Below, one piece after another: positions 6,001 through 33,389 of a stretch of 64,000 nucleotides of DNA. Made by a program: the position numbers and the translations under genes. The DNA is from Candidatus Aenigmatarchaeota archaeon (lineage in GTDB: Archaea > Aenigmatarchaeota > Aenigmatarchaeia > JACPZZ01), in the NCBI GenBank assembly GCA_016202815.1, contig JACQNZ010000007.1:20704-84703 (forward strand), given 5' to 3'. The notes beneath the pieces are model-generated. The model saw nothing but the letters and a program-made list of their open reading frames with translations. It did no database searches and was not told where the DNA came from. Every line of letters begins with the position of its first letter. Positions within the stretch are counted from its first letter, which is position 1.

Positions 6001-8845
6001 GAAAACATCGCACGCGGTTACGGACAGTTATAACAATACAAATGTTTCTGACGTGCAGGACGTGACGTACAACTCGTTGTACCTGTTTGATTTCAAGGGG
6101 ACGGAATTGGCTGACGACGGCACGGCTGGACGAACGATCATAGGCGTCAATTCGACGAACAGCGGACGGGTCGTTGTTTATGGTCCTTACCGCGCAACGT
6201 ACTGGACAACAGAGGCGAAGGATATGTTCTTGCGCAGCGTTTATTGGGCGATTTACGGCGCGGCGCAGACAACATACCCGCAAACGCAGAACGTCACTGT
6301 GCCGTACACGTTCGAGGACCATTTCAACGAATCCGACGGCACAGCCGAAGGCTGGAACGCGACCATTGGATCGTGGATAGTACAAAATGGGGTCTACATA
6401 CAGACAGCGAACGCGTCCACAGACACGTCAACGATAACCAAGCTGAAGAACAATTCCTACTGGAACGATTACACGGTTTCGCTGCGGTTCAGCATGCTCG
6501 GCGGCGTGGCGAATAACACGCAAATCTACTTCCGCTATGAAAACTCCACTCGTTATTACGTGTTAAACATCTCATCGAACGGAGAATTTGCGATTTACAA
6601 GAACAACCGCACCGGAGCTGTTAATATTACGGACAACTCTGCGGGCATGATAGCCATTTCGCAGGACACGTGGTATACGTTAAACATAACAGCGCGCGAA
6701 TACAGCCTTGACGCGGAGATAGGCGGGCTCGGGCGCATAAACGCGACGGAAATACACGACCCGATCACCGGAGGCACGGTTGCGCTCGGTGCGCATAAAT
6801 CCAGTTCGCGCTTCGATGATGTTACTGTTTATCACCATGACGGCGGATACAAAGGAGGCGCATATTACTTCAAGCGCGAATGGGGCGCCGGGCAGCAAAC
6901 TCCGGGCACGTACCGCGCGACAGCGACGTTTACGTATTACAACCACACCGGAAACAGGACAGTGTTAACGAGGAGCGTCGATTTCAACATTACGTCCAAC
7001 CTGACAGCGCAGATCAATGTGACATTGAACGCGACGCTGCTGTCGTTCAGGAACGTGCTTGCGATAAACGGAAACGTCACGGCAGGCGGCAATTTAGCTG
7101 TCACAGGAAACTTCACGCTATCCGTATGGAACAACACGCACGAGATAACGAACATACGCAACACGTCGGTGAGCGTGACGACCTCGTCGTTGTACACGAT
7201 AAGCGACACATGGGACACGCTGTACAACGCGTCGACCAACTATTCGGTGCGCGTGAATTACACGTGGGTTGGCGGGTCGGCGTACGAGAGGGCGAACTTC
7301 TCGATATCCTACAACGCTTCGGCGGATGTGAATGTTACATTAAACGCGCCGAAATACAATGCGTCAACGAACGTCACTGCGAACGTGACTGTGAGGAACC
7401 CGACGCAGTTAACGCTAACAACGTTAACGATTGCGTGCAGCGTGAGTGATTACAACGGCGTGTTAGTCGCATCAGCGACTTCGTCGCCGGACATAGGCAA
7501 CAGGACGATAGGGTCTATCAACGCCGGCTCCACAAAGGCAAACGCAACAGCGTGGAATGTAAGCGCCAACAACGCAGGGACATATTCGCTGCGCTGCAAT
7601 GTTTCGGATGCAAGCGGGCTTATAGGCTACGACGCAAAGACGTTTGACATTACGAGGATAAACGCGACGCTTTCAGTAGGCGCGAACAGGACATCCAACT
7701 ATACGGTCAACGACGCTGTCGGAATTTCGGGCACCATAACGTCTGTGGGCGGGATAAACGTGACAGGACGCCTTGTGGTCGAGGTTTACAACGCGTCGCA
7801 GAGGATAGAACAAACCTACTCACAGAACGTGATCACGGCCGGCGCCAATGCACTTAACGTAACGAACTTAAACCTGACGTTCCGCACGTACAAGAACTTC
7901 ACAGGCACGTACACACTGAACTCCACGTTCAACTATACCAATGAAACGGGTTCGCAAATCGTGCGCAGCGCGACAACCCAGTTTAACGTCAGCTCGAACA
8001 CGAACGCGACTATAACAGCATCTGCAAGCCAAGCGACGTACGGCACGGGCGACACAGCGACAATAACGACAACCGTGACGTCTACTGCGAACGAGGCTGT
8101 TACCAATGGAAACCTGACCGTATACATATTCAACTCGACCACGTTCACATCAACGTACAGGCATTACTGGAACTCGACGCTGTTAAACATAACTCCGGGC
8201 GGATCGGCGACGCAAAGCGACACAGTCAGCCTGTCGTCGTTCTTCGCAGGCACGCATTATATAGTTGCCAATTTCACATTCGGGTCGCAGAACGTCAATG
8301 TAACGAACACGTTCGCGATATCCGTGATCGTTCCGTCGACGAATCTAACGGTAAGGTTCTTCGTGGGCGACGACACGAACTACATGGTTTACACAACTAC
8401 GTCCGGCGAGATACCCGCGAACAAGACAAACGCGACATCTGAATGGACATCCCGCTGGATCGTGTCGTTCTTCAACGATTCTGTTATCGGATTATATGGC
8501 ACGGGCGGGGGCGTATCCGCCGGCGCGTCAAACACAACAGCCGAGCACAGGATAAACGTCAACGGGCTGATCAGGGAGAGCAGGATCTATGCAATTGTTA
8601 CGAAAGGCACGCGCGCCTCGTTCCAGAACCGGGCCGAACTGTTGGACCAAGGCACGTTCACGACGCAGGTCAACCCGTCCTTCGGATACCCGTTGCGCGA
8701 CAAGAACCTGCTTTCGCTGAAATTGAAATACACGGACATAGACGTGCAAGGCACGGACATATTGAAGAAAGGCACTTACAAGCTGCGCATAGAGAACAAT
8801 GGAACGTCGGGCGGAAAGACGCTGATAAGGATTACGACAATCTAG
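1..8845 (+). CDS. Giant secreted/surface protein with repeated LamG (concanavalin A-like) modules; 5' end lies upstream of the window
   Basis: Frame 2 is open from nt 2 (ETYPNATNVTGFVRLGDAVNGIELTRNGSYVAYTNDSSLVGWWHF), repeating the peptide encoded again at 1870-2010, so the Met at 119 is internal. At least five modules run WWHFDNNTNDFSG..LQFDGTDD..IDEV[KR]IYN. There is a sixth jelly-roll-like domain (about 6350-6840), plus Ig-like spacers (ELSAAGIYQYN.TYQESQNYT). N-x-S/T sequons are very dense. Stop at 8843-8845. Confidence 0.85.
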   Translation, partial: ETYPNATNVTGFVRLGDAVNGIELTRNGSYVAYTNDSSLVGWWHFDNNTNDFSGWNNAGTMTGANATYTTGKLRGALQFDGTDDFVTVADSDKFTPTSNGFTVSAWINLAGVQASSGQIRIPIMSKTPPFSGSSGWEWLLKASNNTVLSNKNVTWSFILSNTLGTPLSNATDTENVTLGQWYHVAGAMNSSGVALLYVNGILKGTGVNTSAPLPINTASDVHIGYERGSNVNWYSNSAIDEVKIYNRTLSAGEIQLEYQRGIGQHYELSAAGIYQYNATYQESQNYTAWNVSKILSVTRGVSNITVTFNTSSGFAYGDPLAVWANITALLGDQSATVVLLRNSTEVSRAIGNASSNITLPAGIYNFSAYYSESQNWTNGSATNSYFTIQKATPILGIQTNNSFQAASGLVGYWSFDENTTLSARDQSGFGNDATWTGANNVTHNMTGRFGNALTFDGADDYATISATNNPLNITGNQITITAWFYVNLYKGCGQGGVARTTSVSPYGGYMLTPCNSGGDYFSFNAANSTTWNGVLRAGGVVTNRWYHVAGTYNGTTLGIYIDGVLINSTGHAGNIRDNEGPLLIGTNLNNHFNGSIDEVRIYNYSMSAQEINDSARGVWNDLPETYPNATNVTGFVRLGDSVNGIELTRNGSYVAYTNDSSLVGWWHFDNNTNDFSGRNNNGVMGGVNATYAQGRLRNALQFDGTDDFVNTGITTIQRNFTVSAWIKVKASPGTDQQAIVSKRSYYATAETDFPFEVYAGKQANSISVVLDSGNDFSSDLQGTVSGLTPEKWYFVAVTYNRSVLSVYINDTLANYSIGSVTLSSNSRPYVIGRASFEGVGQERTTGCNCTIDEVKIYNRSLPMSEIAEEYRRGIGEHDELSAAGIYQYNVTYQESQNYTAYNVSKILNVPQGSLSFNLYLNGTEGSVTYTYPNASNATLTISPRFNEEGAFSLLRNGTPTGSGGNNNRTEGMLFGAGIYNYSANASGFANYSITDILSGRILTITRGDPNIALFLNGSQADITSYVYGNPTNATAYRTSILYNNEGTLQLWRNGTSLGTGGPGNVSENAILPAGPNNYSAILLNIANYTYSNVSYTMFVQKATPILGIATNNSNATTGMSGSVLYLSFDENITGISYDSSGFGNDATWTGGANNVTRNLTGKFGSALTFDGTNDYAGIPNSPSLNLTKFTLSAWVQTSMLSPAGAKVIFWKGNAGGSDATSPYTLSFRTDNKLLLMVGDNSDSNKLISDTALSASTWYHIAATADGTTLKLYINGVQDNSTAQTATPYASPFPVLIGGLAGNSNFFNGSIDEVRIYNYSMSAQEINDSARGVFKDIPLIYHAPVNTTGFLRLGDAVNGIYVERNGTPVAYTNDSALVGWWHFDNNTNDFSGWNNAGTMTGANATYTTGKLRNALQFDGTDDYMVVANADSVRFLTNFSISMWFNANNATNGGLISKQHTTSGNRTYQIQFISSGKLRFTMTYNCVTDGSSCTFANLDSSTTLQANTMYFATAVKNATGMTLYLNGQYEGSLSFPYQVTFNDKPMFIGDAFTTSHTFFNGSIDEVKIYNRTLSAGEIQLEYQRGVGMHDELSAAGIYEYNVTYQPTQNYTGYNVSKILNIEKSQSVATLHLNDTNANRDYNRSEWINATGYLSSPLGFFSWETKLLNLTFNYTQTYSTNYTTLGIITGANNTVYNITFNDVPGAYNFTLWFDGDQNYSASSASHIASVYGNLWIGLINPSTVYYTYGQNISLNVTVRDYLRGDEIDAVNVSMNLTSLWANKFRNVPYYSRNVSMLNINDGNYSGSYNITDTHAGNYSLNYTAALAFYRTGRNFTTVYVNESTLANISSLFVNVTTNVTQNQGVLINGTVARLGNIEINGTLDVTIRNVVQDNVGLVVANASALDSYEYLYNATLTDAGYNVTLVDDDTVNANTWTPSLYNVIVWGEASYDNFFMQYVDNNIWSQVTSGKPLVMTYYGMIKGAVDLNLSSGWGGRFQRDVNVKTSHAVTDSYNNTNVSDVQDVTYNSLYLFDFKGTELADDGTAGRTIIGVNSTNSGRVVVYGPYRATYWTTEAKDMFLRSVYWAIYGAAQTTYPQTQNVTVPYTFEDHFNESDGTAEGWNATIGSWIVQNGVYIQTANASTDTSTITKLKNNSYWNDYTVSLRFSMLGGVANNTQIYFRYENSTRYYVLNISSNGEFAIYKNNRTGAVNITDNSAGMIAISQDTWYTLNITAREYSLDAEIGGLGRINATEIHDPITGGTVALGAHKSSSRFDDVTVYHHDGGYKGGAYYFKREWGAGQQTPGTYRATATFTYYNHTGNRTVLTRSVDFNITSNLTAQINVTLNATLLSFRNVLAINGNVTAGGNLAVTGNFTLSVWNNTHEITNIRNTSVSVTTSSLYTISDTWDTLYNASTNYSVRVNYTWVGGSAYERANFSISYNASADVNVTLNAPKYNASTNVTANVTVRNPTQLTLTTLTIACSVSDYNGVLVASATSSPDIGNRTIGSINAGSTKANATAWNVSANNAGTYSLRCNVSDASGLIGYDAKTFDITRINATLSVGANRTSNYTVNDAVGISGTITSVGGINVTGRLVVEVYNASQRIEQTYSQNVITAGANALNVTNLNLTFRTYKNFTGTYTLNSTFNYTNETGSQIVRSATTQFNVSSNTNATITASASQATYGTGDTATITTTVTSTANEAVTNGNLTVYIFNSTTFTSTYRHYWNSTLLNITPGGSATQSDTVSLSSFFAGTHYIVANFTFGSQNVNVTNTFAISVIVPSTNLTVRFFVGDDTNYMVYTTTSGEIPANKTNATSEWTSRWIVSFFNDSVIGLYGTGGGVSAGASNTTAEHRINVNGLIRESRIYAIVTKGTRASFQNRAELLDQGTFTTQVNPSFGYPLRDKNLLSLKLKYTDIDVQGTDILKKGTYKLRIENNGTSGGKTLIRITTI

Positions 8846-17136: not shown

Positions 17137-17406
17137 ATGAAGGTGTTTGAAATGTACGAACAATTGCCCCAGGTTCTGCAGCTTCTCGAACAGGTCGCCA
17201 TGGACCGGACGGTTCCCAGAAACATACGCACATCGGCGGAACAGGTTTCGGAGGAGATAAAAAACAGCAAGGAGCCGATGGATTTGAGGATATCCTCTGC
17301 GATACACATACTTGACGAGGTTTCAAACGACCCAAACATACCCCTTTACACAAGGACGCAGGTATGGAACATCGTTTCGATGCTTGAAAACTGCAGGCAA
17401 AACTGA
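17137..17406 (+). CDS. UPF0147-family small helical protein
   Basis: DRTVPRNIRTSAEQV..ISSAIHILDEVSNDPNIPLYTRTQVWNIVSMLE matches my memory of archaeal UPF0147 proteins. It is at the usual position after prefoldin beta. Confidence 0.65.
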   Translation: MKVFEMYEQLPQVLQLLEQVAMDRTVPRNIRTSAEQVSEEIKNSKEPMDLRISSAIHILDEVSNDPNIPLYTRTQVWNIVSMLENCRQN

Positions 17407-17491
17407 ATCTGAAAAAACACCGGACCAAAGCTTTACCAGAAAGGTTTAAATTCATAGAAAACAAATCTAAGTTATCATTGAGAGCGATAAA

Positions 17492-17830
17492 ATGGTTTTT
17501 GAAAAACTTTTTAAGAAAAAAGGCGACATCGGGACAACGGAATACATCGAAGTTGACAGCGAGGCCATGGACACTTCTGCCGGAAAGATGTCGATCCGCG
17601 TTGAGACGTTAAACGATTTCAACGACACCGAAAGGATACAGAAATACCTGCGCGAAGGCTCGATAATACTCCTTAAGATAAAGAAGCTGCGCGACCGCGA
17701 CCTTGGCGAATTAAAACGCTCGGTCGAAAAGCTTCGAAGAACTTCAAATGCGATCAACGGCGACATCGCAGGCGTCGAAGAAGACTGGTTAATCGTCTGC
17801 CCGCAGTACGCGAAAGTGCACCGCGGCTAA
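17492..17830 (+). CDS. sepF: SepF-like cell division protein
   Basis: A 112-aa protein: EYIEVD..IRVETLNDFNDTERIQKYLREGSIILLKIKKLRDRDLGELKRSVEKLRRTSNAINGDIAGVEEDWLIVCP, which fits the archaeal SepF/DUF552 pattern. Confidence 0.65.
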   Translation: MVFEKLFKKKGDIGTTEYIEVDSEAMDTSAGKMSIRVETLNDFNDTERIQKYLREGSIILLKIKKLRDRDLGELKRSVEKLRRTSNAINGDIAGVEEDWLIVCPQYAKVHRG

Positions 17831-17969
17831 AAATATTTTCGTGCAGCGCAGTTTGCCTGTAAAAGGCTTTGACGCTTAATTGAACATTTTTCCTACTACC
17901 AGCAGGACTATCTTCAATCCAACCTTGCGGAATGTTTTACCGGAACCGGCAATCGCACCATCGCGGTTT

Positions 17970-18623
17970 TTAATTTCTTCCGATGCTGCCCATAAAATCG
18001 CTTCCTTCGTCCGGTTTTACAGGGTTGCCTTCCCCGTAGACACGGGTTATCAGCGGTTTTCCCCTGCTGGACACCATGGGGTTCAGGTCAACTATGGTTT
18101 CCAGCACAGGAACTTCATGCCCTTCGACCATGTATTCGACAAAGCCCCTGAGGCGTATCCTTACAAGGTTGTCCGCGATTACGAAAGCGGGAAGATCCTT
18201 CACCATTATGTCATGGATCCTCAAAGCCAGCGTTAAATTATCCGTTACAAATAACACCTCTTCTTCCTGGACATAATGGGGCGTTTCCATTACAGGGCCA
18301 TGTCGCCTGCGCGACCGCGAAGCGCGGGCAAAGGTCTCAACGCGCTGCCCTGCCCTGTACCTTACAAGCCCGTAAAAATTCGTGAAAGGATCGTCTGGCG
18401 ACATTTCCCCCCTCTCCACGTAAACGCCCATTGAACGATGATCGATGCCTTTTATTGGCATCCTGGTTGTTTTCTTGTAAGACTCGGCTGTCAATTCCTG
18501 CTGAAGCTCGTTCCAGCGGTTTTCTATCTCCCTTTCATATCTGTCAGCATCGTATAATGTAGGAAAATCGCCCTTCCTTACCCTGGGTGAAAACCTGTTT
18601 GCGTACACACATAATTCAGGCAT
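17970..18623 (-). CDS. Uncharacterised paralog 5 of the five-gene array (217 aa)
   Basis: MPELCVYANRFSPRV, YEREIENRWNELQQE and EEEVLFVTDN..IHDIMVKDLPAFV are shared with the four upstream genes. GAGGT lies 3-7 nt before the ATG. Confidence 0.7.
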   Translation of the reverse strand: MPELCVYANRFSPRVRKGDFPTLYDADRYEREIENRWNELQQELTAESYKKTTRMPIKGIDHRSMGVYVERGEMSPDDPFTNFYGLVRYRAGQRVETFARASRSRRRHGPVMETPHYVQEEEVLFVTDNLTLALRIHDIMVKDLPAFVIADNLVRIRLRGFVEYMVEGHEVPVLETIVDLNPMVSSRGKPLITRVYGEGNPVKPDEGSDFMGSIGRN

Positions 18624-18661
18624 GATACCTCAATAGGGGCAAAGCTTTAAATCATGAAAAT

Positions 18662-19270
18662 CTAGCCGAACCGCGCGCGCGCAACGGCTATTACGTCCCC
18701 CACCAACGGCCCGTCGCTGTAAAAAATATCAAATTCTCCCGTTCCGTCCAGTTTTATGTCAATCCGTTTAGGCCTTTGCGCAATTATGCCGTCCGGCAAA
18801 CCTGTTTCCATTATCTCCATTACATCCCGGCAAAATCCCTCGACGTCTGCTACAAGATACAGCTCCATATCAGGACTGTAAACAGGTTTTTTACCCGGCC
18901 GTATTATAGCCTCATCGCCAAGGTGCGTTGCGAGCAGGTATGTTCTTGCGGTTTCAGGAAGGAGCGGAGAGCCTATAAAGCCCGGATCTGCAACAGTGTC
19001 CATTGAGGTGCCTGTAACAACAGGTTCCCACAGATCGCCGGTTTCCACACTCAGGCATCTTTCACCGTATCCCGTAGACGGAGATTTCACAGTCCTGGAT
19101 TTTGCCGCCCTGCCCAAATATCCCTGTAGTTCGCAGAACCTGTAACCCATTTCCTCGCTGAAAAGCTGCGCTGCCCATGGCTTTGGCCTTCCGTTCTTGA
19201 ATGCGACAGGCTCGAACCTGCGGGCGTAATAAAAGAAATTGGTCCTGGCGGAATCGCCCGACGCCTGCAT
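18662..19270 (-). CDS. Uncharacterised paralog 4 of the five-gene array (about 202 aa)
   Basis: NFFYYARRFEPVAF, FSEEMGYRFCELQGY and DMELYLVADVEGFCRDVMEIMETGLPDGI. The ATG at 19270 is preferred over the TTG at 19276. Confidence 0.7.
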   Translation of the reverse strand: MQASGDSARTNFFYYARRFEPVAFKNGRPKPWAAQLFSEEMGYRFCELQGYLGRAAKSRTVKSPSTGYGERCLSVETGDLWEPVVTGTSMDTVADPGFIGSPLLPETARTYLLATHLGDEAIIRPGKKPVYSPDMELYLVADVEGFCRDVMEIMETGLPDGIIAQRPKRIDIKLDGTGEFDIFYSDGPLVGDVIAVARARFG

Positions 19271-19308
19271 AAACAAATATTGAAAAGCAAATATTTAAGC
19301 GACGGATG

Positions 19309-19824
19309 TCATAACCCGCCCGAACGGACGCGTATCGAGAAGCCGTCTTCCATGTCAACGGAGTAAAGCCTCGAAGCGCGCGAAACCGAAATTCCCGGTG
19401 GCAGGTTTTTTTCCACAATCTTCCTCACATCTTCAACAACTTCTCCGTAATCTTTCACGGAAAAAAGAACCTCCATTTCACGGTCGATGCCGCAGCCTGT
19501 CCCGCTGATAACGCGGACGGCGTCGTAAATGCCCACAAGGCCGTAGTTTTTCGGCGGCAGGAGCAAGCCGCCTTTCACAGGCATCACAATGCCGCCTTCA
19601 CTGTGCTTCCAGAGGCTCATGCCTTCCACGACCTCGCTGTCTTCCGCGCACGCGGACCTCTGCGCGAACGTGTCAATATATCCCTGCAGTTCGCTCCATC
19701 TCATGTCCATTTCGATTTCAAAACCGCGGACGATGTCCGGGTTCGCGAACCTTACGCCTGCCAGGGGTTTCGGAGATAACATAACAGAATAGGTGTGCAG
19801 TTTGCCGCGCGCAGGTTCGTACAT
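19309..19824 (-). CDS. Uncharacterised paralog 3 of the five-gene array (171 aa)
   Basis: LHTYSVMLSPKPL, FEIEMDMRWSELQGY and EMEVLFSVKDYGEVVEDVRKIVEKNLPPGI. Confidence 0.7.
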   Translation of the reverse strand: MYEPARGKLHTYSVMLSPKPLAGVRFANPDIVRGFEIEMDMRWSELQGYIDTFAQRSACAEDSEVVEGMSLWKHSEGGIVMPVKGGLLLPPKNYGLVGIYDAVRVISGTGCGIDREMEVLFSVKDYGEVVEDVRKIVEKNLPPGISVSRASRLYSVDMEDGFSIRVRSGGL

Positions 19825-19862
19825 CTTGCTTCAAGCAAAGATAGCATGATAAGAATTAAATA

Positions 19863-20342
19863 TCAAGCCGTTGCCATGAGTTCGCGCTCCAGCTCTTCGT
19901 TTATGCGCCTGTCCTGTGCGACCCAAACACCGTAACCGGTGAAAACGGGGAACAATATTTCAGAAGGCCCCATCCTGCGCACGCTTCGCATGGGCGATCC
20001 CATTTTCCGCCTGAATTCTTCCACAAGTCCTTCGTCAAATGAGCACACTGCTATGTCGTACTGCGCGGCCCACAAAACAGGATTTTTTTGGGCTTTTGAG
20101 TTGCGGAAATATATCCCTGCGGCGTAAACGCTTCCGCCCCCTGAAAGGTTCGCGCAGCTGGCAATTCCGGCGCCTTCTTCCGCGGGAAGTTTTTTAGGCA
20201 AACTTGCCGCCCCGAGCGAACGAAACACTTCCATGGTCCGGTCCTGGATCTCGTCCCAGTAAGCTGAAAAATTTCCAGAACCGGAAAGGCCGTCGACCGG
20301 CGCAAAACTTGCGGAGTACGATGGCAGGAACACAGCCGGCAT
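19863..20342 (-). CDS. Uncharacterised paralog 2 of the five-gene array (159 aa; the most divergent member)
   Basis: MPAVFLPSYSASFAPV, FSAYWDEIQDRTMEVF and YDIAVCSFDEGLVEEFRRKMGSPMRSV. Confidence 0.65.
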   Translation of the reverse strand: MPAVFLPSYSASFAPVDGLSGSGNFSAYWDEIQDRTMEVFRSLGAASLPKKLPAEEGAGIASCANLSGGGSVYAAGIYFRNSKAQKNPVLWAAQYDIAVCSFDEGLVEEFRRKMGSPMRSVRRMGPSEILFPVFTGYGVWVAQDRRINEELERELMATA

Positions 20343-20370
20343 AAGAAATAATCATGCTTCACGGATTTAT

Positions 20371-20853
20371 TTACCTGAAAATTTGTTTTCTTCTCGCCGC
20401 GATCGCGTAAACGTCTTCCAAAGACCATACGAACAGGCGCTGCGCCTCGAGCTTGGCTATCCAATCCGGCAAACCTGTTTCCATCCTCGCCTTCACGCCG
20501 TCCACGAATCCGCGGTCGCCGGAAAATATTCCCAGCTCGACGTCGCGGATGTCGCCTTCTGCGATTGTTTCAAAATCCCCGCACACTTCAACGTTTCCGG
20601 AATGGTGCACGCCTCGAATAAGATACGGGTCGCCCTGTTTCGTTGTCCCGACGGCAGTGTATTCGCCTCCCTTCTGCAGAAGGCCGTAACCGGAAACGTA
20701 TTGCAATACCTGCGTGCCGTTTACGAGGTTCAGCACGCGCAAGAACCTTTTCCCCATTTCCCGCTGGAAATTTTTTGAAGGGTCGACCTGCTCATAAGCT
20801 TCGGCGGCCCGCAGCACAGGGACAAACCTTGAAACGTAAACCGCTGCAGGCAT
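20371..20853 (-). CDS. Uncharacterised paralog 1 of the five-gene array (about 160 aa)
   Basis: MPAAVYVSRFVPV, FQREMGKRFLRVL and DVELGIFSGDRGFVDGVKARMETGLPDWI. The ATG at 20853 is preferred over the GTG at 20868. A TTTTAAATTTAT box lies about 25-30 nt upstream. Confidence 0.7.
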   Translation of the reverse strand: MPAAVYVSRFVPVLRAAEAYEQVDPSKNFQREMGKRFLRVLNLVNGTQVLQYVSGYGLLQKGGEYTAVGTTKQGDPYLIRGVHHSGNVEVCGDFETIAEGDIRDVELGIFSGDRGFVDGVKARMETGLPDWIAKLEAQRLFVWSLEDVYAIAARRKQIFR

Positions 20854-20976
20854 TCGATTAATTCGCACCGCATAAATTTAAAACGTCCGGTCAAATTTTT
20901 TCGATTTCTCGCAGTTGCTCCAAAATGACATCCAAATCCACAAAAGGTTTTAAAGAAGCCGGAACAAGTGGATTAA

Positions 20977-21324
20977 ATGGATCTTTCCGAACTCAAAAAT
21001 CTTTTAAAAGGTTACAAGAGACCCGATGTGGAGTTTGGTTCCCATTCCGATATCCGCATCGCAGAAAGGGAACTGGAAAAGGAAGAGGTTATCAGGAACC
21101 TGCTAAACCCCGAAAATCTGATAGATTTTGAGGAGCAGCCCGCAAGGCGCGAAGGAGAAAGGAAATTCAAGCTCATCTTTGATAAAAGCAACACATCGTC
21201 CCTGATTATCATGGCGGTGCTAACGCCAGATCATAAAATCAAGGTTCCTACGGTAATTAACAGGATGCGCAAGTGGCATAAAATAATCAAAGACTGCCAG
21301 AAAAGCCTTTTCGGAAGGCTTTAA
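20977..21324 (+). CDS. DUF4258-like putative toxin
   Basis: EFGSHSDIRIAERELEKEEVIRNLLNPENLIDFEE..KFKLIFDKSNTSSLIIMAVLTPDHKIKVPTVI follows the DUF4258 pattern (H-x3-R..R.i, then a beta-rich core). It is paired with a DUF2283 gene. Confidence 0.5.
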   Translation: MDLSELKNLLKGYKRPDVEFGSHSDIRIAERELEKEEVIRNLLNPENLIDFEEQPARREGERKFKLIFDKSNTSSLIIMAVLTPDHKIKVPTVINRMRKWHKIIKDCQKSLFGRL

Positions 21325-21362
21325 TACCGGTTGTCAGGTGTAATATTATTAAGTGATGCGAG

Positions 21363-21686
21363 ATGGCGAAACAATTCGTTTTTGACTATGACGATGAATC
21401 CGATTCCGTATTCATCAAAACAAAAGATGCTAAAATCAAAGGCAGCGTCGACATAGGAGACTACATAATTGATTTTACTCCGGAAGGAAAGATAGCGGGT
21501 CTGGAGATACTCAATCTTTCCAAAAACTTCAGGGACCTGCCAAAAGAAATAGAATTTGCTGATTGCCGGTTTGAAGTCAGGTACGCAAAAGACTATACCG
21601 TCATCATATTCTCTGCAATCCTTAAAACCGGCGAAAAGATACAAACCAACGTGCCTATTCTGGCCGCGATACCAGTAGGCCGCTAA
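21363..21686 (+). CDS. DUF2283-family protein (putative antitoxin partner)
   Basis: FVFDYDDESDSVFIKTKD..GSVDIGDYIIDFTPEGKIAGLEILNLSKN matches the DUF2283 signature (YD.e.D.lyi ... G.i.GiEil.as). Confidence 0.65.
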   Translation: MAKQFVFDYDDESDSVFIKTKDAKIKGSVDIGDYIIDFTPEGKIAGLEILNLSKNFRDLPKEIEFADCRFEVRYAKDYTVIIFSAILKTGEKIQTNVPILAAIPVGR

Positions 21687-21696
21687 ACTTGATTTC

Positions 21697-23583
21697 TCAT
21701 TTCAGCCTTATAACGTCAAGGACCCGCGGCGCTATCGCATCGCATTTGAACATCTTGTGCAGCGTTTTTGCGAAATCGTTCGCCTTCGACGGGTCTAAAT
21801 GGCACAAGACTATCCTTTCAGGCCGTGAATGGAGCTTGTATATGAAATTAATCAATTTCGCGCGGTCGGAGTGGCCTGACAGGCCTTCCACAGTGTCGAC
21901 TTCCATGTTTATCTTCAATGTCGTTGTTTTTCCGTTTTCCGTCTGCACAGGCAGTTCGCGCCAGCCCTTTTGTATGCGGTTTCCTAAAGTTCCCGCGCCC
22001 TGATAGCCGACGAATAACAAACCGTTTTTCGGGTCCTCGGCAAACGCTTTCAGGTATTCAACGGCAGGCCCGCCTATCAGCATGCCTGATGTTGCTATGA
22101 CGACACAAGGCTCTTTCGAATTCATGACTTCTTCGCGCTCTTTCTGCGAGGCGATGCGCTTGAATATTGGCGACAAAAACGGGTTTTCACCCTCGTGGAA
22201 CGTTTTCCGCTGAATCTCGCGCGACATGAATTCAGGGTATACCGTGTACACGGCCGCGGCGTCCCAGAGCATGCCATCGAGGTAAATGGGCTTGTCGAAT
22301 TTGTTTTCCTGCAATATGATCATAAGTTCCTGCGCACGCTCCACTGCGAACGAAGGAATCAAAACTTTTCCGCCGCGCTGCATGACCTTGTCAACTTTTG
22401 TAAGCAGCGATTTCTCCGCATCCATCCTGCTTGGGAGCACGTCGCCGGAACCTCCATACGTTGATTCTATGATCAGGGTCTCTACGCGCGCGAAATCCGT
22501 CGACGCCTGCTCGAACACGCGGGACTTTTCATAGCGCAGGTCGCCTGTGTACAAGATGTTGTAAAGACCGTCACCGATGTGAAGGTGCACCAACGCTGAA
22601 CCGAGCAGGTGGCCGGCGTTTTGAAGCGTCAACCGCACGTCAGGCGTGATGTCGGAAACTTCGCCGTAATCGAGCGTGATGCAATGTTTGACAGCTTCCT
22701 TTACGCCCTTGCTTGTGTACGGCACAAACCGGCCTTCGCGCTGGCAGACGTCTATGTAATCCAGACATAACATGACCATCAAGTCCCGCGTGGGTGCTGT
22801 GGTGTACAAAGGGCCCTTGAATCCCTGCTCGTACAAAAACGGGACCATCCCGGAATGGTCCAGATGCGCGTGGCTTAGCACGACAGCATCGAGCTTCGAT
22901 ATGTCAAACTCGGGCGCGTTGAAATACGGGTACTGGTTAGAGGAAACGTCTGCGCCGCAGTCGATCAGGATATTGGATTCAGGCGTTTGTATCAAACCGC
23001 ACGAACGGCCGACCTCGCGGTAACCGCCCAACGCAGACAACCGGATCCACTGCTCGCCCGGCTTTTTGGGCGCGTGTATGCGCATGCCGACTTTGTTCAA
23101 AAAATCCTTCCTGTATTTTGTTTCAGAGTGCAGCGTCTTCCTAACTGAAGAAACTATATCGGATTTTAAAATGGGCGCGCGTTCCACCTGCGGGCTCCAG
23201 AAAATGGTGGACTTGATCGTCCGCAGCGTCTCGCCGCCCTTTCCGATGACCAAACCCGGCTTTTCAGCCTCGATAATCACTTTCCCAAGTTCAGGTTCGA
23301 AATAAATGTCGCGTATCTTCGCGTCTTCGGGGACGATTTCCTTTATCTTCGCCGTTGCTGCCTCTATTTCCATCGTTATCGACAAATCCGGACGAATTTC
23401 GATGCGCTTCTTTAATTCGTCGACGAGCTTGCGGACAGCCATCCCGTTCTGCGTGTAAAAGTCCTTGCTCTTCGTGTATACAACAATTTCCGAGCCTTCG
23501 AACGATGTGTCTGATATGTCCGCATCCGGCGGAAGACCTTCCTTTATCTTGTCAAATATTTCCATGCGCTTTTCCCCTTTCAA
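21697..23583 (-). CDS. aCPSF1/FttA-type beta-CASP ribonuclease (2 KH + metallo-beta-lactamase + beta-CASP)
   Basis: The N-terminal KH region is VIGKGGETLRTIK. The MBL motif is VVLSHAHLDHSG, and beta-CASP continues to GLSGHSD. At 628 aa the size is typical. An alternative start is the ATG at 23565. Confidence 0.9.
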   Translation of the reverse strand: MKGEKRMEIFDKIKEGLPPDADISDTSFEGSEIVVYTKSKDFYTQNGMAVRKLVDELKKRIEIRPDLSITMEIEAATAKIKEIVPEDAKIRDIYFEPELGKVIIEAEKPGLVIGKGGETLRTIKSTIFWSPQVERAPILKSDIVSSVRKTLHSETKYRKDFLNKVGMRIHAPKKPGEQWIRLSALGGYREVGRSCGLIQTPESNILIDCGADVSSNQYPYFNAPEFDISKLDAVVLSHAHLDHSGMVPFLYEQGFKGPLYTTAPTRDLMVMLCLDYIDVCQREGRFVPYTSKGVKEAVKHCITLDYGEVSDITPDVRLTLQNAGHLLGSALVHLHIGDGLYNILYTGDLRYEKSRVFEQASTDFARVETLIIESTYGGSGDVLPSRMDAEKSLLTKVDKVMQRGGKVLIPSFAVERAQELMIILQENKFDKPIYLDGMLWDAAAVYTVYPEFMSREIQRKTFHEGENPFLSPIFKRIASQKEREEVMNSKEPCVVIATSGMLIGGPAVEYLKAFAEDPKNGLLFVGYQGAGTLGNRIQKGWRELPVQTENGKTTTLKINMEVDTVEGLSGHSDRAKLINFIYKLHSRPERIVLCHLDPSKANDFAKTLHKMFKCDAIAPRVLDVIRLK

Positions 23584-23659: not shown

Positions 23660-24286
23660 TCAATTACCCAAGTCGTCGCCTTTGAGGCGCTTTATTCCTT
23701 CAGCCTTGATTATCATTATGTCTATGCCTTTGCCGCCCGAGCCTATATCGCGCTCTATGGCGGCTTTAATGGCGCGCACCGCAAGCTTTGCCGCCTCTTC
23801 CGTTGTTATGTTCTGCTTGTACGAATCTTCCAGGACACCCAGCGCATAAGGCGAACCGGATCCTGTGGAGAAGAATTTTCTCTCTTCGTCATACGCTCCT
23901 AACGCGTCCATTGGATAAATTACGGCACCCTTCGAATCGACGCCGCCCAAAATCAGTTGAACCATGTACGGGACGTAAGACCACCGGCCGCCTTGCAATA
24001 TGTTTGAAAGAAGCGTGGCAGCGCCCTTGACCGTCAAAGGCTTCTGGTTCTGTATCTTGAACAATTTCAATTCCGCCCGCAAATACCGGACAAGCGCCTG
24101 TGCGTCGCCGGCTGCGCCGGCTATCGTCAAGCCGATAGCATCGTCGACTTCGTAGATTTTTTCAGATTCCTTGGACGCTATAAGATAGCCCATTGTGGAC
24201 TTCTTTTCCGCGGCCATGACCACACCGTCCTTGCAGACTATGCCCACGGTCGTTGTCCCGGTCTTCAATACCTGTATCTCTGTCAT
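23660..24286 (-). CDS. psmB: Proteasome beta subunit
   Basis: The propeptide is MTEIQVLKTG, followed by the catalytic TTTVGIVCKDGVVMAAEKK. Also present: GLTIAGAAGDAQ and FFSTGSGSPYALGVLE. Confidence 0.92.
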   Translation of the reverse strand: MTEIQVLKTGTTTVGIVCKDGVVMAAEKKSTMGYLIASKESEKIYEVDDAIGLTIAGAAGDAQALVRYLRAELKLFKIQNQKPLTVKGAATLLSNILQGGRWSYVPYMVQLILGGVDSKGAVIYPMDALGAYDEERKFFSTGSGSPYALGVLEDSYKQNITTEEAAKLAVRAIKAAIERDIGSGGKGIDIMIIKAEGIKRLKGDDLGN

Positions 24287-24471
24287 TTCAAAACACGCAT
24301 TAATTTTGTTAAAATAATTTTGTCGGCTTTTATAATCCGTGTTAACTACCGTTTACTTCCTGCCGCGTTACGCAATATGTTATTCCAAATGTAGGATAAC
24401 GCCAACAGAAATTCAAAACCAACTTACCTATGTATGGGATATTGTATTTAAATACGTATTGGTGGCAGCGG

Positions 24472-24524
24472 CTTTGCACCTTAAGTTTCGGTTGCACTTA
24501 AAGTCTGAAGGTTGCACTTAAAGT
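24472..24524. repeat. Iteron-like direct repeats (GGTTGCACTTAAAGT x2 perfect, plus one imperfect copy)
   Basis: Perfect 15-mers lie at 24490-24504 and 24510-24524 (20-bp period). CTTTGCACCTTAAGT at 24472-24486 is an imperfect copy. A partial GTTGCA occurs again at 24533-24538. Confidence 0.65.
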
Positions 24525-24525
24525 G

Positions 24526-24906
24526 TTATAGCGTTGCATCTTTTCCAAACTCGTTAACATCTGCGGTTGATAATAGAAACATTGTATCTATCCGGAGATG
24601 TTTAAAAATATCGTTTGGGTCAAGTATTTTTAATTTTGGCTCATTTTTCATATCGTGAACAACATATATGTAATAATTCGATAGGTCTTTACCAAGATTT
24701 CTTACGATAGAATTGTTTATCCAAATCCAGCTTGCTCTCTTATCCGACTGTCCTTTGACCTCGATGCAACGATCATCGGATTTAACATCATATCCGATTT
24801 TCTTTCTACTTACGTCTTCGGGATGCCTTCCTTGTTTTCTTTCATAATCCATTACAATTTTCATAGCTCTTTGTTCGACAGAATTTGGCATCGTTTTCGC
24901 TTCCAA
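24526..24906 (-). CDS. DUF3883-like (PD-(D/E)xK nuclease fold) protein
   Basis: IGYDVKSDDRCIEVKGQSDKRASWIWINNSIVRNLGKDLSNYYIYVVHD resembles the DUF3883 core (GyD..s...r.IEVKg......i.ls.nE......Y.LyvV). The locus is AT-rich. A possible alternative start is the ATG at 24891. Confidence 0.5.
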   Translation of the reverse strand: MEAKTMPNSVEQRAMKIVMDYERKQGRHPEDVSRKKIGYDVKSDDRCIEVKGQSDKRASWIWINNSIVRNLGKDLSNYYIYVVHDMKNEPKLKILDPNDIFKHLRIDTMFLLSTADVNEFGKDATL

Positions 24907-25100
24907 ACAAACTTAAGTGTCTGACTCGCTAATTATTGTTAGCCTGCAGAATTTTGGAGCTGTTTCAGGCAATTATCGTGGAGCCAAAAACGGTCATAAG
25001 CCGTAATTGGCCGAGAGAGGCGGGCACTTCCAAACACCTTCGCCTTTTACCCTTCTTGTTTATCCTTTTTTACCGAAAACAGTTACTCCTGTTCTGTAGG

Positions 25101-25655
25101 CTATGTGAACTTCGACAGTTCCTCCTTCAATACTTCTACAGCATATCTTTCGCCCTGTGGAGTTGTTTGGAAAGTTTTTTTACCTAACGGTTTAACGATA
25201 AGGCGTTTGTCAGTCAAAGTTCGAGTTGTATTTGATATGTTTTTTGTATCAACACCACTGGATTTCATTTGCGTTGTAACGCGCTCTGATGTAATTTCCT
25301 TTGTGCCGTAGAATTTAGACAGAGCATAAGCTATCACCATAAATGCCTTTGACTGACTTTCCACCAATGAATCCGCTTCTATCCTGAACAGTATCATAGG
25401 ACCGTCTTTTTCAAATCTTAGGAGATGTTCCAAGGACTCTCTGGTGAACTCGCTTCCCTGTGATTCTGTCTGCACCGCAGTAGACGGCGCAATGATCGCA
25501 TCGTTTCCACCTATTGGTGTCAAAGATACAGAACTGCCGCCTAAACGATCGATAACGGCTTTAATGTCTGTAGCCTTAGTTTCCACCTCTTCAGCCGTTT
25601 GACCCTCTATCTCGAATACCGTATTCTTATACACCATTTTGATCTTTATCGTCAT
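25101..25655 (-). CDS. Hypothetical protein (184 aa), possible C-terminal wHTH
   Basis: A long ORF in the AT-rich islet with no motif I can assign. The C-terminal part ISNTTRTLTDKRLIVKPLGKKTFQTTPQGERYAVEVL looks wing-helix-like. Confidence 0.45.
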   Translation of the reverse strand: MTIKIKMVYKNTVFEIEGQTAEEVETKATDIKAVIDRLGGSSVSLTPIGGNDAIIAPSTAVQTESQGSEFTRESLEHLLRFEKDGPMILFRIEADSLVESQSKAFMVIAYALSKFYGTKEITSERVTTQMKSSGVDTKNISNTTRTLTDKRLIVKPLGKKTFQTTPQGERYAVEVLKEELSKFT

Positions 25656-25808
25656 TTTATCACCTTTACTATACTTCTATATGCTGTTTTGATTCCATAT
25701 CGAATCACACGAAGGGATTTTGCCTTTCAATTTGTTATGGTTGTTCATGAATTCAATACTAATCCGGTTACACTATTTAAATGATGAGCAGTTTACTAAA
25801 AAGAATAC

Positions 25809-25843
25809 TAAATAGTATATCATTTAGTATCGTAAATAGTATA
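25809..25843. promoter_or_regulatory. Operator-like direct repeats TAAATAGTATA x2 in a divergent intergenic region
   Basis: Exact 11-mers lie at 25809-25819 and 25833-25843, with a TTTAGTAT half-site between them. The region lies between the 184-aa gene and the small wHTH gene. Confidence 0.35.
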
Positions 25844-25882
25844 CTATATAAGATGTTTATGATTGAATCACAAAATTTGGGT

Positions 25883-26095
25883 ATGAAATATATTGATAGG
25901 GTCGAAGAAGTCCTGACAGACAAACCCAGCTCCGTTTCAGGCATACAAAAAAAGGTCGAAGAAAAAGTAAGGAAGGATGTTAATTGGAACAGCGTGAAGT
26001 TGTGTTTGATAGAATTAGAGAAGCGTGGTAAGGCCGAAAGTATAGACACCGAGCAGAAAAAAGAGTTGTGGAAAAAATCTGGAAAACTCGGATAA
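25883..26095 (+). CDS. Small winged-helix protein (about 70 aa)
   Basis: MKYIDRVEEVLTDKPSSVSGIQKKVEEKVRKDVNWNSVKLCLIELEKRGKAESI. The upstream extension to 25781 is low-complexity and overlaps the repeat region. Confidence 0.4.
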   Translation: MKYIDRVEEVLTDKPSSVSGIQKKVEEKVRKDVNWNSVKLCLIELEKRGKAESIDTEQKKELWKKSGKLG

Positions 26096-26098
26096 TAA

Positions 26099-26671
26099 TC
26101 ACGCAAAGTCTGGCCGTATCCTCAATGTATGCATCTCCTGTATCAGCACGGTTATATTGTAAGCCAAAATTTTAGCCAACAATTCGTTTTCCTGTGCAAT
26201 CCTGTTCTTGCTTTTCAGCTTATCGCCAAGCTTCTTTTTTATCGAACTGAAAACGCTTTCGCAATTTGAGCGTTTGCTGTAATGTCGCATGAACTCTTCC
26301 CTATTATACATGAAGTAATGGAACATCTTAGTCCAAAGGTATGAACCTCTTGCTTTTGCCCGCGAATCTGACCGGAACGGAATAAAGGCTTGTCCGCCCA
26401 AATCACTCACAAGTTGGTAGTTTGCCTTACTCAAATACGCCTTGTCGGCTACGGCGGTCTTGATTGAAAAGCTCCTTGCCGTAGTTTCCAACAACGGTTT
26501 GAATTGCGGGCTGTCTCCGCTATTCTCATCCCCGATTATGACCGCAGTAACTATGTTCGTTTTCAAACCAACGGCTAAATGTGCTTTCAGCCATTTATGC
26601 TGTCTTTTCAGGTTAAACCTGTATTCAACATATTGACCGAAACAACGGGTGCGGAAACCCGAAGAATCATG
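26099..26671 (-). pseudogene. 5'-truncated IS5/IS4-superfamily DDE transposase remnant
   Basis: In hand translation the frame stays open upstream of the track's TTG: DSSGFRTRCFGQYVEYRFNLKRQHKWLKAHLAVGLKTNIVTAVIIGD..VADKAYLS..YSKRSNCESVFSSIKKKLG. This gives DDE-type D, D and the E-region, but there is no N-terminal domain or start codon, and a neighbouring gene starts at 26728. Confidence 0.7.
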
Positions 26672-30130: not shown

Positions 30131-30547
30131 TTGCCAAAAAAAATTGTCGTTGTGATTGAGAAGGAAAAAGGCGGTTATTATACATCGCTGGCCGTCGGGT
30201 TTGCGGGCTGCCTGTACAAAGCGAAGACGTTAAAAGAATTAATTAAATGTGCCAGAAAAGAAATAAAACACCGCCTGAAAAAAGACGAGTACGTTTACAA
30301 GGCGGATTTTGTAGGCGTGCGTATTATGGACTCGAAGGTTTGGGGCACAAAAAAATTCACAGTTGTAATGGAAAAGGCTGGCAGCGATTACATAGCTATT
30401 GTTCATTCTATTCCGGGGTGTTATACGCAGGCAGAAACGATGGACGATCTTATCAGGTATATCAAGGAAGCGATCACACTTTGCCTGGATACGGGCGCGA
30501 AGCCTGTTAAAACCGATTTCGTGGGCGTGCAATTAATCGAGGTCTGA
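30131..30547 (+). CDS. hicB: HicB-like antitoxin with duplicated HicB_N/UPF0150 fold (copy 1, TTG start)
   Basis: There are two repeats of the pattern: VVVIEKEKGGYYTSLAVGFAGCLYKAKTLKELIKCARKEIK and FTVVMEKAGSDYIAIVHSIPGCYTQAETMDDLIRYIKEAITLCL. Confidence 0.7.
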   Translation: MPKKIVVVIEKEKGGYYTSLAVGFAGCLYKAKTLKELIKCARKEIKHRLKKDEYVYKADFVGVRIMDSKVWGTKKFTVVMEKAGSDYIAIVHSIPGCYTQAETMDDLIRYIKEAITLCLDTGAKPVKTDFVGVQLIEV

Positions 30548-30548
30548 C

Positions 30549-30746
30549 ATGAGGTTAATCCCTATAGCCGCTGTTAAGCTGGTAAAAATCCTGGAAAAGA
30601 TAGGCTTCAAACCCGTCAGGCAGGACGGAAGCCATCTTAGGCTGATACACGCAGACGGCAGGGCTACGACCGTACCGATTCATCCGGGCAAAGACATAAA
30701 CCAACCTCTCCTCAAAGATAAAGGTCCTGAGAAGGATTCAAACTAA
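30549..30746 (+). CDS. hicA: HicA mRNA interferase toxin (copy 1)
   Basis: VKILEKIGFKPVRQDGSHLRLIHADGRATTVPIHPGKDI is the HicA signature. The C-terminus diverges from copy 2, and the 3' end overlaps the convergent proS stop. Confidence 0.8.
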   Translation: MRLIPIAAVKLVKILEKIGFKPVRQDGSHLRLIHADGRATTVPIHPGKDINQPLLKDKGPEKDSN

Positions 30747-32695: not shown

Positions 32696-33103
32696 ATTAC
32701 GCCGAGAAAATTTGCTGTATTAATTGAAAGAAACAGGGGCTATTACATAGCATCCGCCATCCAACTGCCGGGTTGCCGCGTCAAAGCAAAAACTCTTGAA
32801 AATCTTATAACAAAAACTGTAATAGCCGTTAAACGTTATCTGACAGTAGAAAAGGATATACCTAAATCTGAATTTATCGGCGTTCGTATCGTTGGGTTTA
32901 AAAATAAAAAATTTGCGACCTCGATTGAAAAATCTGGCAAGGATTATATCGGAGTGGTTCCTTCTTTGCCAGGATGTTTCACACAAGGCAGAACAATAGA
33001 TGAATTGATGAAATACATAAAGGAAGTTATTGAGCTCTGCTCGGATTCCAAAAAATCCGGTGAGAAAATAGACTTTGTTGGCGTCCAATTTGTAGAGGTT
33101 TGA
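32696..33103 (+). CDS. hicB: HicB-like antitoxin (copy 2) without a canonical start codon; possible ATT start or decaying gene; not in the ORF track
   Basis: My hand translation is (I)TPRKFAVLIERNRGYYIASAIQLPGCRVKAKTLENLITKTVIAVKRYL...FATSIEKSGKDYIGVVPSLPGCFTQGRTIDELMKYIKEVIELC..VGVQFVEV*. It is colinear with copy 1. The frame is open only from 32684 (TAA at 32681), and there is no ATG, GTG or TTG before residue 90 or so. Confidence 0.55.
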   Translation: MTPRKFAVLIERNRGYYIASAIQLPGCRVKAKTLENLITKTVIAVKRYLTVEKDIPKSEFIGVRIVGFKNKKFATSIEKSGKDYIGVVPSLPGCFTQGRTIDELMKYIKEVIELCSDSKKSGEKIDFVGVQFVEV

Positions 33104-33104
33104 C

Positions 33105-33389
33105 ATGAGACTGGTTCCTATAGCGGCCGTTAAGCTGGTAAAAATCCTGGAAAAGGCCGGCTTTCAGCCCGCTAGGCAGGTCGGCAGTCACCTAAGGTTG
33201 ATACACCCCGACGGCAGGGCTACGACTATTGCGATACACGGCTCAAAAGAGATAAACCCCAACATTCTCAACGGAATACTAAAAGAAGCGAAAATCAGCA
33301 GGGAAGAGTTCTTTAAACTGTTAAAAGAAATTCTCATATTGCTGGGAATCTTACCGCCAAGGCACGAAAAGGTATCGGATAAAACGTGA
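33105..33389 (+). CDS. hicA: HicA toxin (copy 2) with a C-terminal extension
   Basis: VKILEKAGFQPARQVGSHLRLIHPDGRATTIAIHGSKEINPNILNGILKEAKISREEFFKLL. A 27-nt run, GTTAAGCTGGTAAAAATCCTGGAAAAG, is identical to copy 1. Confidence 0.8.
   Translation: MRLVPIAAVKLVKILEKAGFQPARQVGSHLRLIHPDGRATTIAIHGSKEINPNILNGILKEAKISREEFFKLLKEILILLGILPPRHEKVSDKT

Follow-up and report, generated by a model that had tools for sequence, protein, structure and literature searches.

Do tightly packed, diverged tandem paralogs encode the subunits of one machine, or can they be something looser? The question is raised by five consecutive genes (G1 to G5) in a stretch of 64,000 nucleotides (nt) from Candidatus Aenigmatarchaeota archaeon (GCA_016202815.1, contig JACQNZ010000007.1, positions 20,704-84,703), which we refer to as the window. 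An earlier note, made from the letters of the window, had described the five as one family with no recognisable domain and proposed that they form one hetero-oligomeric assembly. Performing profile comparisons, library searches, structure prediction and a survey of related genomes, we find that the five proteins are indeed relatives, that the family has a restricted distribution, that its genes change much faster than their neighbours, and that copy number varies between close relatives. We are highly confident of this descriptive part. The mechanistic part is a tentative proposal, namely that the array is a duplicated, lineage-specific family of binding or adaptor modules. To the reading as a whole we give a probability of roughly 0.45.

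Five paralogs of one family

The open reading frame (ORF) listing places five minus-strand ORFs in tandem at 17970-20853 of the window, as follows.

G1, 20371-20853, minus strand: 160 amino acids (aa) from an ATG, with an alternative upstream GTG possible at 20868; first gene of the array, {G1,G2} sub-group
G2, 19863-20342, minus strand: 159 aa, the same as database protein P0007; the most divergent paralog
G3, 19309-19824, minus strand: 171 aa; orthogroup signature GVRFANPDI in the loop between the first strand and the first helix (b1-a1)
G4, 18662-19270, minus strand: 202 aa from an ATG, the length of the database gene call P0001; a TTG start at 19276 is less likely
G5, 17970-18623, minus strand: 217 aa; final array gene, extended at the C-terminus by ~60 aa

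The spacers from G1 to G5 measure 28, 38, 38 and 38 nt. The ORFs and the 28-38 bp spacing given in the earlier note were thus confirmed, every motif string that it quoted is found in the translations, and annotation of the neighbours agrees with its placement of the array between the exosome/SepF block and aCPSF1-psmB. It had also seen no membrane segment or signal peptide. Consistent with this, no transmembrane segment was found in the family proteins (Kyte-Doolittle 19-mer maximum at most 1.64) and there is no secretion signal. The isoelectric points are mostly 5-6.7.

When only the window proteins were compared, phmmer and BLASTP linked G3 to G4, G4 to G5, and G1 to G4 (by the C-terminal motif only), and G2 stayed unlinked. 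Profiles from three genomes gave 93-98% among G3, G4 and G5, 85% for G1-G4 and less than 7% for G2. The paralogy clears chance only after orthologues are added to the window proteins. We therefore rely on hhalign comparisons between orthogroup profiles built from 6-9 genomes each, the orthologues being collected from 11 genomes. G1-G2 reached 97.7% (E 2.5e-12, 136 columns), G3-G4 99.1%, G3-G5 98.8% and G4-G5 99.1%, while G1 matched G3, G4 and G5 at 82-88% over ~140 columns. The matches cover most of the protein in every pair but G2-G3. Since the direct matches of G2 to G3, G4 and G5 are weak (36-64%), we placed G2 in the family through G1. Three bridging G2-like proteins (L015_3, L017_2 and L021_2, where L numbers are our handles for loci in other genomes) match the hidden Markov model (HMM) of G2 at E 1e-12 to 1e-18 and that of G1 at E 1e-9 to 1e-13.

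An alignment of 33 sequences brings all five groups into register. Its core has a Tyr in the first strand (G1 Y6) and an Arg in the first helix (G1 R36) that never vary, a Gly and a Tyr in mid-protein that hardly vary, an acidic E-x-E strand and, following the second helix, an LP turn. Together with the hhalign results, the alignment bears out the family proposed from the window. On the profile comparisons, the family splits into two sub-groups, {G1,G2} and {G3,G4,G5}. At the DNA level, a 39-nt direct repeat (79% identical) joins G4 and G1 at the METGLPD motif.

The b1-a1 loop differs by orthogroup: besides the G3 signature given above, it reads NGRPKxWA in G4 and G[DE]FPTL in G5. In G4, a long insertion of low complexity is present, and the extreme C-terminus is conserved as R-x-R-F-G. 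Two further ideas about the proteins were rejected. The MP... N-termini of G1, G2 and G5 prompted us to consider a tautomerase-like catalytic Pro-1, but Pro-2 is not conserved in the G1 and G5 orthologues and is absent from G3 and G4. An internal duplication (an SHS2- or GyrI-like b-a-b-b repeat) found no support in a profile self-alignment (off-diagonal E 0.71).

We looked for relatives outside the array in several libraries. Scans of the five single proteins against Pfam, NCBIfam, PHROGs and PADLOC gave no match (PHROG best E 0.39). With all 33 members, Pfam at E up to 10 gave no recurrent family; eight different families appeared once each, which is noise. Searching PDB sequences with two family profiles, we obtained only chance-level matches (spectrin, hibernation factor HPF, designed proteins; E at least 0.19). 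No family could be placed for any of the five proteins by these Pfam and PDB searches. Rfam had no match in 17400-21800, and a literature search on the array family found nothing.

A k-mer-seeded search of 5.8 billion proteins returned four proteins for G4 and four for G5. The k-mer-seeded profile search with a 16-sequence alignment returned only G4 and G2 orthologues and missed the query's own G1, G3 and G5. Because it omitted known members, we took the size of the family from an exhaustive profile search with HMMER over 1.84 billion representative proteins, which gave just 20 matches at E up to 1e-3. Nineteen of these fall in the G1, G3, G4 or G5 orthogroups or between groups (P0023, P0029). 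The remaining one, P0030 (1774 aa), matched in three short stretches at E 2.2e-4; it was treated as spurious, having E 0.49 against the group HMMs.

Structure prediction leads the same way. The AlphaFold2 (AF2) model of G1, made from a 26-sequence family alignment, has a predicted local distance difference test score (pLDDT) of 80.9 and a predicted template modelling score (pTM) of 0.77. Its topology is b-a-b4-a-b3: b1 (4-12), a short helix, a1 (25-45), b2 (48-54), b3 (63-70), a long hairpin of b4 (76-91) and b5 (94-111), a2 (114-125) and, at the end, three short strands. For G3, the model (10-sequence alignment) was poor, with pLDDT 57.7 and pTM 0.61, and we judged it unfit for a fold search, for which the G1 model replaced it. 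Even at this low confidence, G3 keeps the element order of G1.

Foldseek found nothing for the G1 monomer at E up to 1e-3 in the PDB or BFVD, and the best template modelling (TM) scores were 0.2-0.4. The best PDB matches were START/Bet v1-like proteins (E 0.007-0.02, TM 0.22, root-mean-square deviation (rmsd) 13 A), uS10, the gamma-COP appendage and AcrID1. The Bet v1/START (SRPBCC) proteins, of which 3otl and 3put matched best, are likewise small, soluble alpha+beta proteins with an antiparallel sheet on helices, but the SRPBCC sheet ends in a long C-terminal helix, unlike the b-a-b4-a-b3 order of the family. We rejected an SRPBCC identity, since neither the TM-score (Foldseek best E 6.6e-3) nor the rmsd nor the topology fits, none of the 33 members has such a Pfam or NCBIfam match, and hhalign against an AHSA1-family protein of L001 gave 0.1%. 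uS10 and the M20-peptidase dimerisation domains recurred as weak matches. They share a two-layer alpha/beta sandwich, b-a-b units and a long beta-hairpin with the model, but the matches are not significant (E 0.02-0.3, TM 0.2-0.4, rmsd 9-14 A) and there is no sequence signal. The modelled G1 fold thus appears to be without a convincing relative in the two structure libraries. The absence of a recognisable domain noted from the letters therefore held against profile and structure libraries alike, and because no known family or fold can be assigned, we regard the array family as new at the family level.

Several known classes of protein were considered and rejected on these results. A phage or virus protein family does not fit (PHROG best E 0.39; BFVD best E 5.5e-3, TM 0.13). 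Nor does a component of anti-phage defence or a toxin-antitoxin system, for which PADLOC and Pfam gave zero matches; only unrelated inserted neighbours match toxin-antitoxin-type families. For subunits of the CRISPR repeat-associated mysterious protein (RAMP) type (Cas5/6/7-type), there is no Pfam or PADLOC match and no spaced short repeat family in the window. The slot's immediate neighbours include no cas genes; they are housekeeping genes and occasional toxin-antitoxin-type or uncharacterised insertions. A proteasome chaperone or activator (PAC/Pba-type, PAC2/PAC3) has no profile or fold match, and the R-F-G end, present in the G4 group only, is not a canonical HbYX motif.

Copy number, rate of change and promoter-like signals in the slot

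We then asked where the family occurs. Each member with a readable contig sits in one slot, directly downstream of psmB-aCPSF1 and convergent with SepF. The traced genomes with a named organism are all Candidatus Aenigmatarchaeota metagenome-assembled genomes, mostly from groundwater. In the window, aCPSF1 and psmB lie upstream of G1 on the minus strand, and a plus-strand block of SBDS-Rrp4-Rrp41-Rrp42-L37ae-prefoldin beta-UPF0147-SepF converges on G5. The slot is framed and interrupted as follows.

aCPSF1 (KH + beta-CASP), 21697-23565, minus strand: conserved upstream anchor of the slot, 89-95% identical in all 10 compared loci
SepF, 17492-17830, plus strand: conserved convergent downstream anchor (Pfam PF04472, E 4.7e-11), 95-98% identical between genomes
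Insertion between aCPSF1 and G1, 20977-21686, plus strand: a 115-aa ORF (orfA) with a weak DUF4258-like match, plus a 107-aa DUF2283 protein

Homologous arrays do stand in other genomes, where their absence would have told against the earlier note. The 11 genomes hold 5, 5, 5, 5 (one with an internal deletion), 4, 4, 3, 2, 2, 1 and 1 copies.

Window, L001 and L005: G1-G2-G3-G4-G5
L009: G1-G2-G3-G4 (131 aa)-G5; G4 with an in-frame deletion, the ARVRFG end kept
L021: G1 (truncated, 101 aa)-G2-G3-G4
L017: G1-G2-G3-G4/5-like
L014: G1-G3-G4
L015: G1-G2 after a gene for a DUF218-like exported protein
L018: an unrelated gene of 302 aa on the opposite strand, next a HicA-type pair, next a fragment of G1 and finally G4
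L019: G1 only
L020: one G4/5-like gene only

The same slot and the same order return, but only four of the 11 genomes hold five copies. The order G1>G2>G3>G4>G5 is violated in none of the 11. G1 has orthologues in L001, L005, L009, L014, L015, L017 and L019; G5 has a clear orthologue in only four of the 11 genomes.

The aCPSF1 identity matrix groups the window with L001, L005, L009, L017 and L021 (93-98%), L015 with L018 (97%) and L019 with L020 (95%). As these sister genomes were grouped by aCPSF1 identity, it follows that close relatives keep different paralogs: L019 retains G1 where L020 retains a G4/5-like gene, and L015 has G1 and G2 where L018 has a G1 fragment and G4. Truncated copies occur in L009 (G4), L018 (G1) and L021 (G1). 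The G1, G2, G3 and G4/G5 orthogroups are each present in several diverged genomes. By this pattern, the duplications predate the clade, with copies lost independently and quickly, and the copies appear to be individually dispensable. The earlier note's statement that the array is not a recent duplication agrees with orthogroups shared across diverged genomes, which point to old duplications. More distant relatives with a prefoldin-UPF0147-SepF block (SepF 44-57% identical) had no family member in the sequence available.

The deleted copy in L009 (9558-9953) is a G4 orthologue minus ~85 residues, that is, the whole strand-helix C-terminal half, with a TTG start 7 nt after the G3 stop. An extreme C-terminus of [RK]-x-[RYK]-F-G is found in the G4 orthologues, in this deleted copy and in the single gene of L020. 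Because the L009 copy keeps ARVRFG despite its internal deletion, the comparison suggests that the extreme C-terminal tail of G4 is functionally important.

The slot also receives other genes. The DUF2283 match of the pair at 20977-21686 is at E 3e-9, while the DUF4258 match is at E 0.069, below threshold; the pair is putatively of toxin-antitoxin type and lies outside the array family. It is specific to the window: L001, L005 and L009 lack it, and there G1 begins ~48 nt after aCPSF1. Since the slot hosts this DUF4258-like/DUF2283 pair in the window, a HicA-type pair and a 302-aa gene in L018 and a DUF218-like protein in L015, the aCPSF1-SepF junction behaves as an insertion hotspot. In a more distant relative (L030, 2658-7294), psmB-aCPSF1-L37ae-prefoldin-UPF0147-SepF all lie on one strand. 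Given this one-stranded order, the convergent array junction is a rearranged state and not the general archaeal arrangement.

To compare rates of change, we set the window against L001, L005, L009 and L014. Identity of the flanking proteins is 83-98% (SepF 95-98%, aCPSF1 92-94%), against only 32-64% for the G1-G5 proteins. By the Nei-Gojobori method, the array genes have nonsynonymous divergence (dN) of 0.16-0.58 and dN/dS (dS, synonymous divergence) of 0.07-0.32, and the flanking genes dN of 0.004-0.10 and dN/dS of 0.006-0.12, these ratios being rough because dS is near saturation. Comparing L001 with L005, we obtained array dN values 6-75 times (mostly 10-40 times) those of the neighbours. 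By these estimates the array genes are clearly under purifying selection, though much weaker or more heterogeneous than that on the neighbours.

We also inspected the spacers for promoter-like signals. The following boxes stand out in the window.

TATA-box-like element TTTTAAATTTAT, 20872-20883, minus strand: begins 30 nt upstream of the G1 ATG
TATA-like box TTAAATAT, 19291-19298, minus strand: at -28 of G4
TATA-like box TTTAAA, 18646-18651, minus strand: at -28 of G5

Boxes of the TTTAAA type thus begin 28-30 nt before the ATG of G1, G4 and G5. Weaker A/T-rich boxes are ATTTAATT at -37 of G3 and TAAATAAAT before G2, the latter overlapping the G1 stop codon. Boxes equivalent to TTTTAAATTTAT stand upstream of G1 in L001, L005, L009 and L014, and in these four genomes similar boxes precede most, but not all, array genes. 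The -28 geometry is shared by psmB and the inserted orfA and is characteristic of leaderless promoters in archaea. TTTTAAATTTAT is likely an archaeal core promoter for a leaderless or short-leader mRNA. The array spacers measure 28-48 nt; in most of them a TATA-like box precedes the ATG by ~28-30 nt, and a Shine-Dalgarno sequence is absent from all. This arrangement suggests that the array genes are separate leaderless transcripts. A bacterial promoter and terminator scan was disregarded as uninformative for an archaeon.

The exosome genes Rrp4-Rrp41-Rrp42 offer a comparison in the same conserved neighbourhood, being likewise adjacent and co-oriented and including paralogs (Rrp41, Rrp42). Unlike the array genes, they overlap or abut without TATA-like boxes, are 83-91% identical between genomes and are always all present, against spacers mostly with boxes, 32-64% identity and one to five copies in the array; the two sets have no sequence or fold relationship. 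Given the boxes in the array and the overlapping exosome genes, the 28-38 nt spacing is best read as minimal promoter size and not as translational coupling.

What the array proteins may do

We propose that the five array genes arose by old, serial tandem duplications of one lineage-specific gene. That gene would encode an alpha+beta protein, soluble and mildly acidic, that measures 150-220 aa and has the predicted topology b-a-b4-a-b3. The family is confined to one small groundwater Aenigmarchaeota clade, each traced member lying between aCPSF1 and SepF. The copies are real genes under purifying selection that are gained, truncated and lost independently among close relatives, most of them with a putative leaderless-type promoter of their own. 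They may act as partly redundant, subfunctionalised binding or adaptor modules and neither as enzymes nor as a fixed five-part machine. The common core (the invariant Tyr in b1 and Arg in a1, the acidic E-x-E strand and the LP turn after a2) would be shared by all, the orthogroup-specific b1-a1 loop may confer on each copy its own specificity, and where several copies are present, they may associate as homo- or hetero-oligomers. Their role would most likely be a fast-changing, lineage-specific accessory interaction, either related to conflict or symbiosis or modulating a neighbouring housekeeping function.

Some points weigh against this proposal. The binding role and the oligomerisation are what we infer, and dS is saturated for most pairs, which leaves the dN/dS values rough. 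The fold comparison covered the PDB and BFVD, and structural relatives may exist among uncharacterised cellular proteins such as those in AlphaFold DB or ESM Atlas. The strict position directly downstream of aCPSF1, with its fixed gene order, could point to a functional tie with the proteasome or with RNA 3'-end processing in place of an accessory role. In four genomes all five orthogroups are maintained, and there a heteromer would fit.

The last point returns us to the assembly proposed in the earlier note, in which the five proteins are distinct, co-required subunits of one hetero-oligomer. Five diverged paralogs in a fixed order, each orthogroup under purifying selection in four genomes, would suit such an assembly. 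The conserved loop signature of each orthogroup is also expected when a homo-oligomer duplicates into a heteromer. However, seven other genomes of the clade make do with 1, 1, 2, 2, 3, 4 and 4 copies, and the sister genomes L019 and L020 retain different single paralogs. L009 lacks the C-terminal half of G4, and the G1 copies of L021 and L018 are shortened. A promoter-like box stands before most genes individually, in contrast to the overlapping, coupled genes of the exosome subunits. Variable copy number, different single survivors in sister genomes and separate TATA-like boxes thus speak against the earlier proposal, and we consider co-required subunits unlikely. A facultative heteromer among whichever copies a genome has is possible.

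Could the array proteins instead be lineage-specific accessory factors, serving as adaptors or regulators either for aCPSF1/FttA (transcription termination and RNA 3'-end cleavage) or for the 20S proteasome, whose beta subunit is encoded just upstream? The family follows psmB-aCPSF1 directly and on the same strand in all 11 genomes, with a gap of ~48 nt where there is no insertion, and proteins of the G4 group could use their conserved [RK]-x-[RYK]-F-G tail to dock onto a partner. Against this, aCPSF1 and psmB are 88-99% identical between genomes and the array proteins 32-64%. Because a conserved partner surface would normally constrain the array proteins, a tight partnership is disfavoured. 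Moreover, the family is absent from all other archaea having aCPSF1 and a proteasome, including the distant relatives that we examined; the C-terminal motif is no canonical HbYX and is limited to one sub-group; and the array genes have promoter-like boxes of their own. We find such a role improbable.

A bolder version of our own proposal joins the fold to the variation. In it, a protein fold not seen before would be used by one DPANN symbiont clade as a modular, rapidly re-shuffled interacting set, either a strain-variable hetero-oligomer or an arms-race repertoire directed at host or competitor, inside the most conserved archaeal housekeeping neighbourhood. It is an outside chance.

A conflict-related repertoire may also be considered, with the proteins acting in poly-immunity or antitoxin-like fashion against toxins of neighbours or mobile elements, or as effectors on the host cell. 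The tandem array brings to mind the poly-immunity arrays of polymorphic toxin systems, whose members are likewise diverged paralogs, small and cytoplasmic, that evolve fast and vary in copy number. The quick change of the proteins, their presence/absence variation and the narrow taxonomic range all fit. The slot takes toxin-antitoxin-type genes (the DUF4258-like ORF with DUF2283 in the window, HicA with its partner in L018), and giant Laminin_G_3 surface proteins are encoded nearby. However, no immunity or toxin family matched in PADLOC or Pfam, no gene with a toxin domain adjoins the array, and no secretion signal is present. Unlike poly-immunity arrays, the family also looks vertically inherited, at a fixed housekeeping locus with a conserved paralog order. 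This explanation appears quite unlikely.

The ORFs could also be decaying or functionless leftovers that a permissive intergenic slot tolerates. Truncated copies, frequent loss and high dN would agree with this, but it is very improbable, as dN/dS (0.07-0.32) is well under 1 in every orthogroup, the reading frames stay intact even between genomes with saturated synonymous sites, the paralogs share conserved residues and motifs, and AF2 gives a confident compact fold.

Surroundings of the array and wider meaning

Some features of the window lie apart from the array. On the plus strand, a giant ORF at 119-8845 encodes at least 2908 aa and may extend past the window start. Five Laminin_G_3 domains were recognised in it, beside one Ig-like and one sialidase-N-like domain, and its DNA shows internal repeats with a period of ~2.1 kb (families D1, D2, D4-D8). 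The product is probably a DPANN adhesion or surface protein, and giants of a similar kind (1149-5010 aa) stand beside the locus in L015, L019 and L021. Just beyond psmB, the minus strand encodes a NOV_C-domain (restriction-endonuclease-like) protein at 24526-24906 and a DDE_Tnp_1 transposase fragment at 26099-26566, in a stretch where the guanine-cytosine content dips markedly (0.40 at 24001-26000). This stretch is likely a mobile-element remnant. Further on, a 174-nt direct repeat, 78% identical, occurs at 30509-30682 and 33065-33238 with the copies 2.5 kb apart (family D3).

What does the array tell us more broadly? Reading tight tandem paralogs as the subunits of one machine is attractive, and here it is unsupported. 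DPANN archaea have very many unannotated genes, few of which have been dissected, and the array is a bounded example. Orphan families are common in DPANN genomes and this one is found in about a dozen uncultivated genomes. Because these are few and the proposed function is tentative, we consider the general importance moderate. The family was born and expanded in one clade, at the junction of the exosome and proteasome/aCPSF1 blocks. There it evolves an order of magnitude faster than its neighbours and undergoes differential loss between near-identical genomes. If the fold is truly new, it would be an addition to protein fold space. If the copies do form variable heteromers or serve interactions of a symbiont with its host or competitors, the array would provide a tractable handle on innovation in reduced-genome symbionts.

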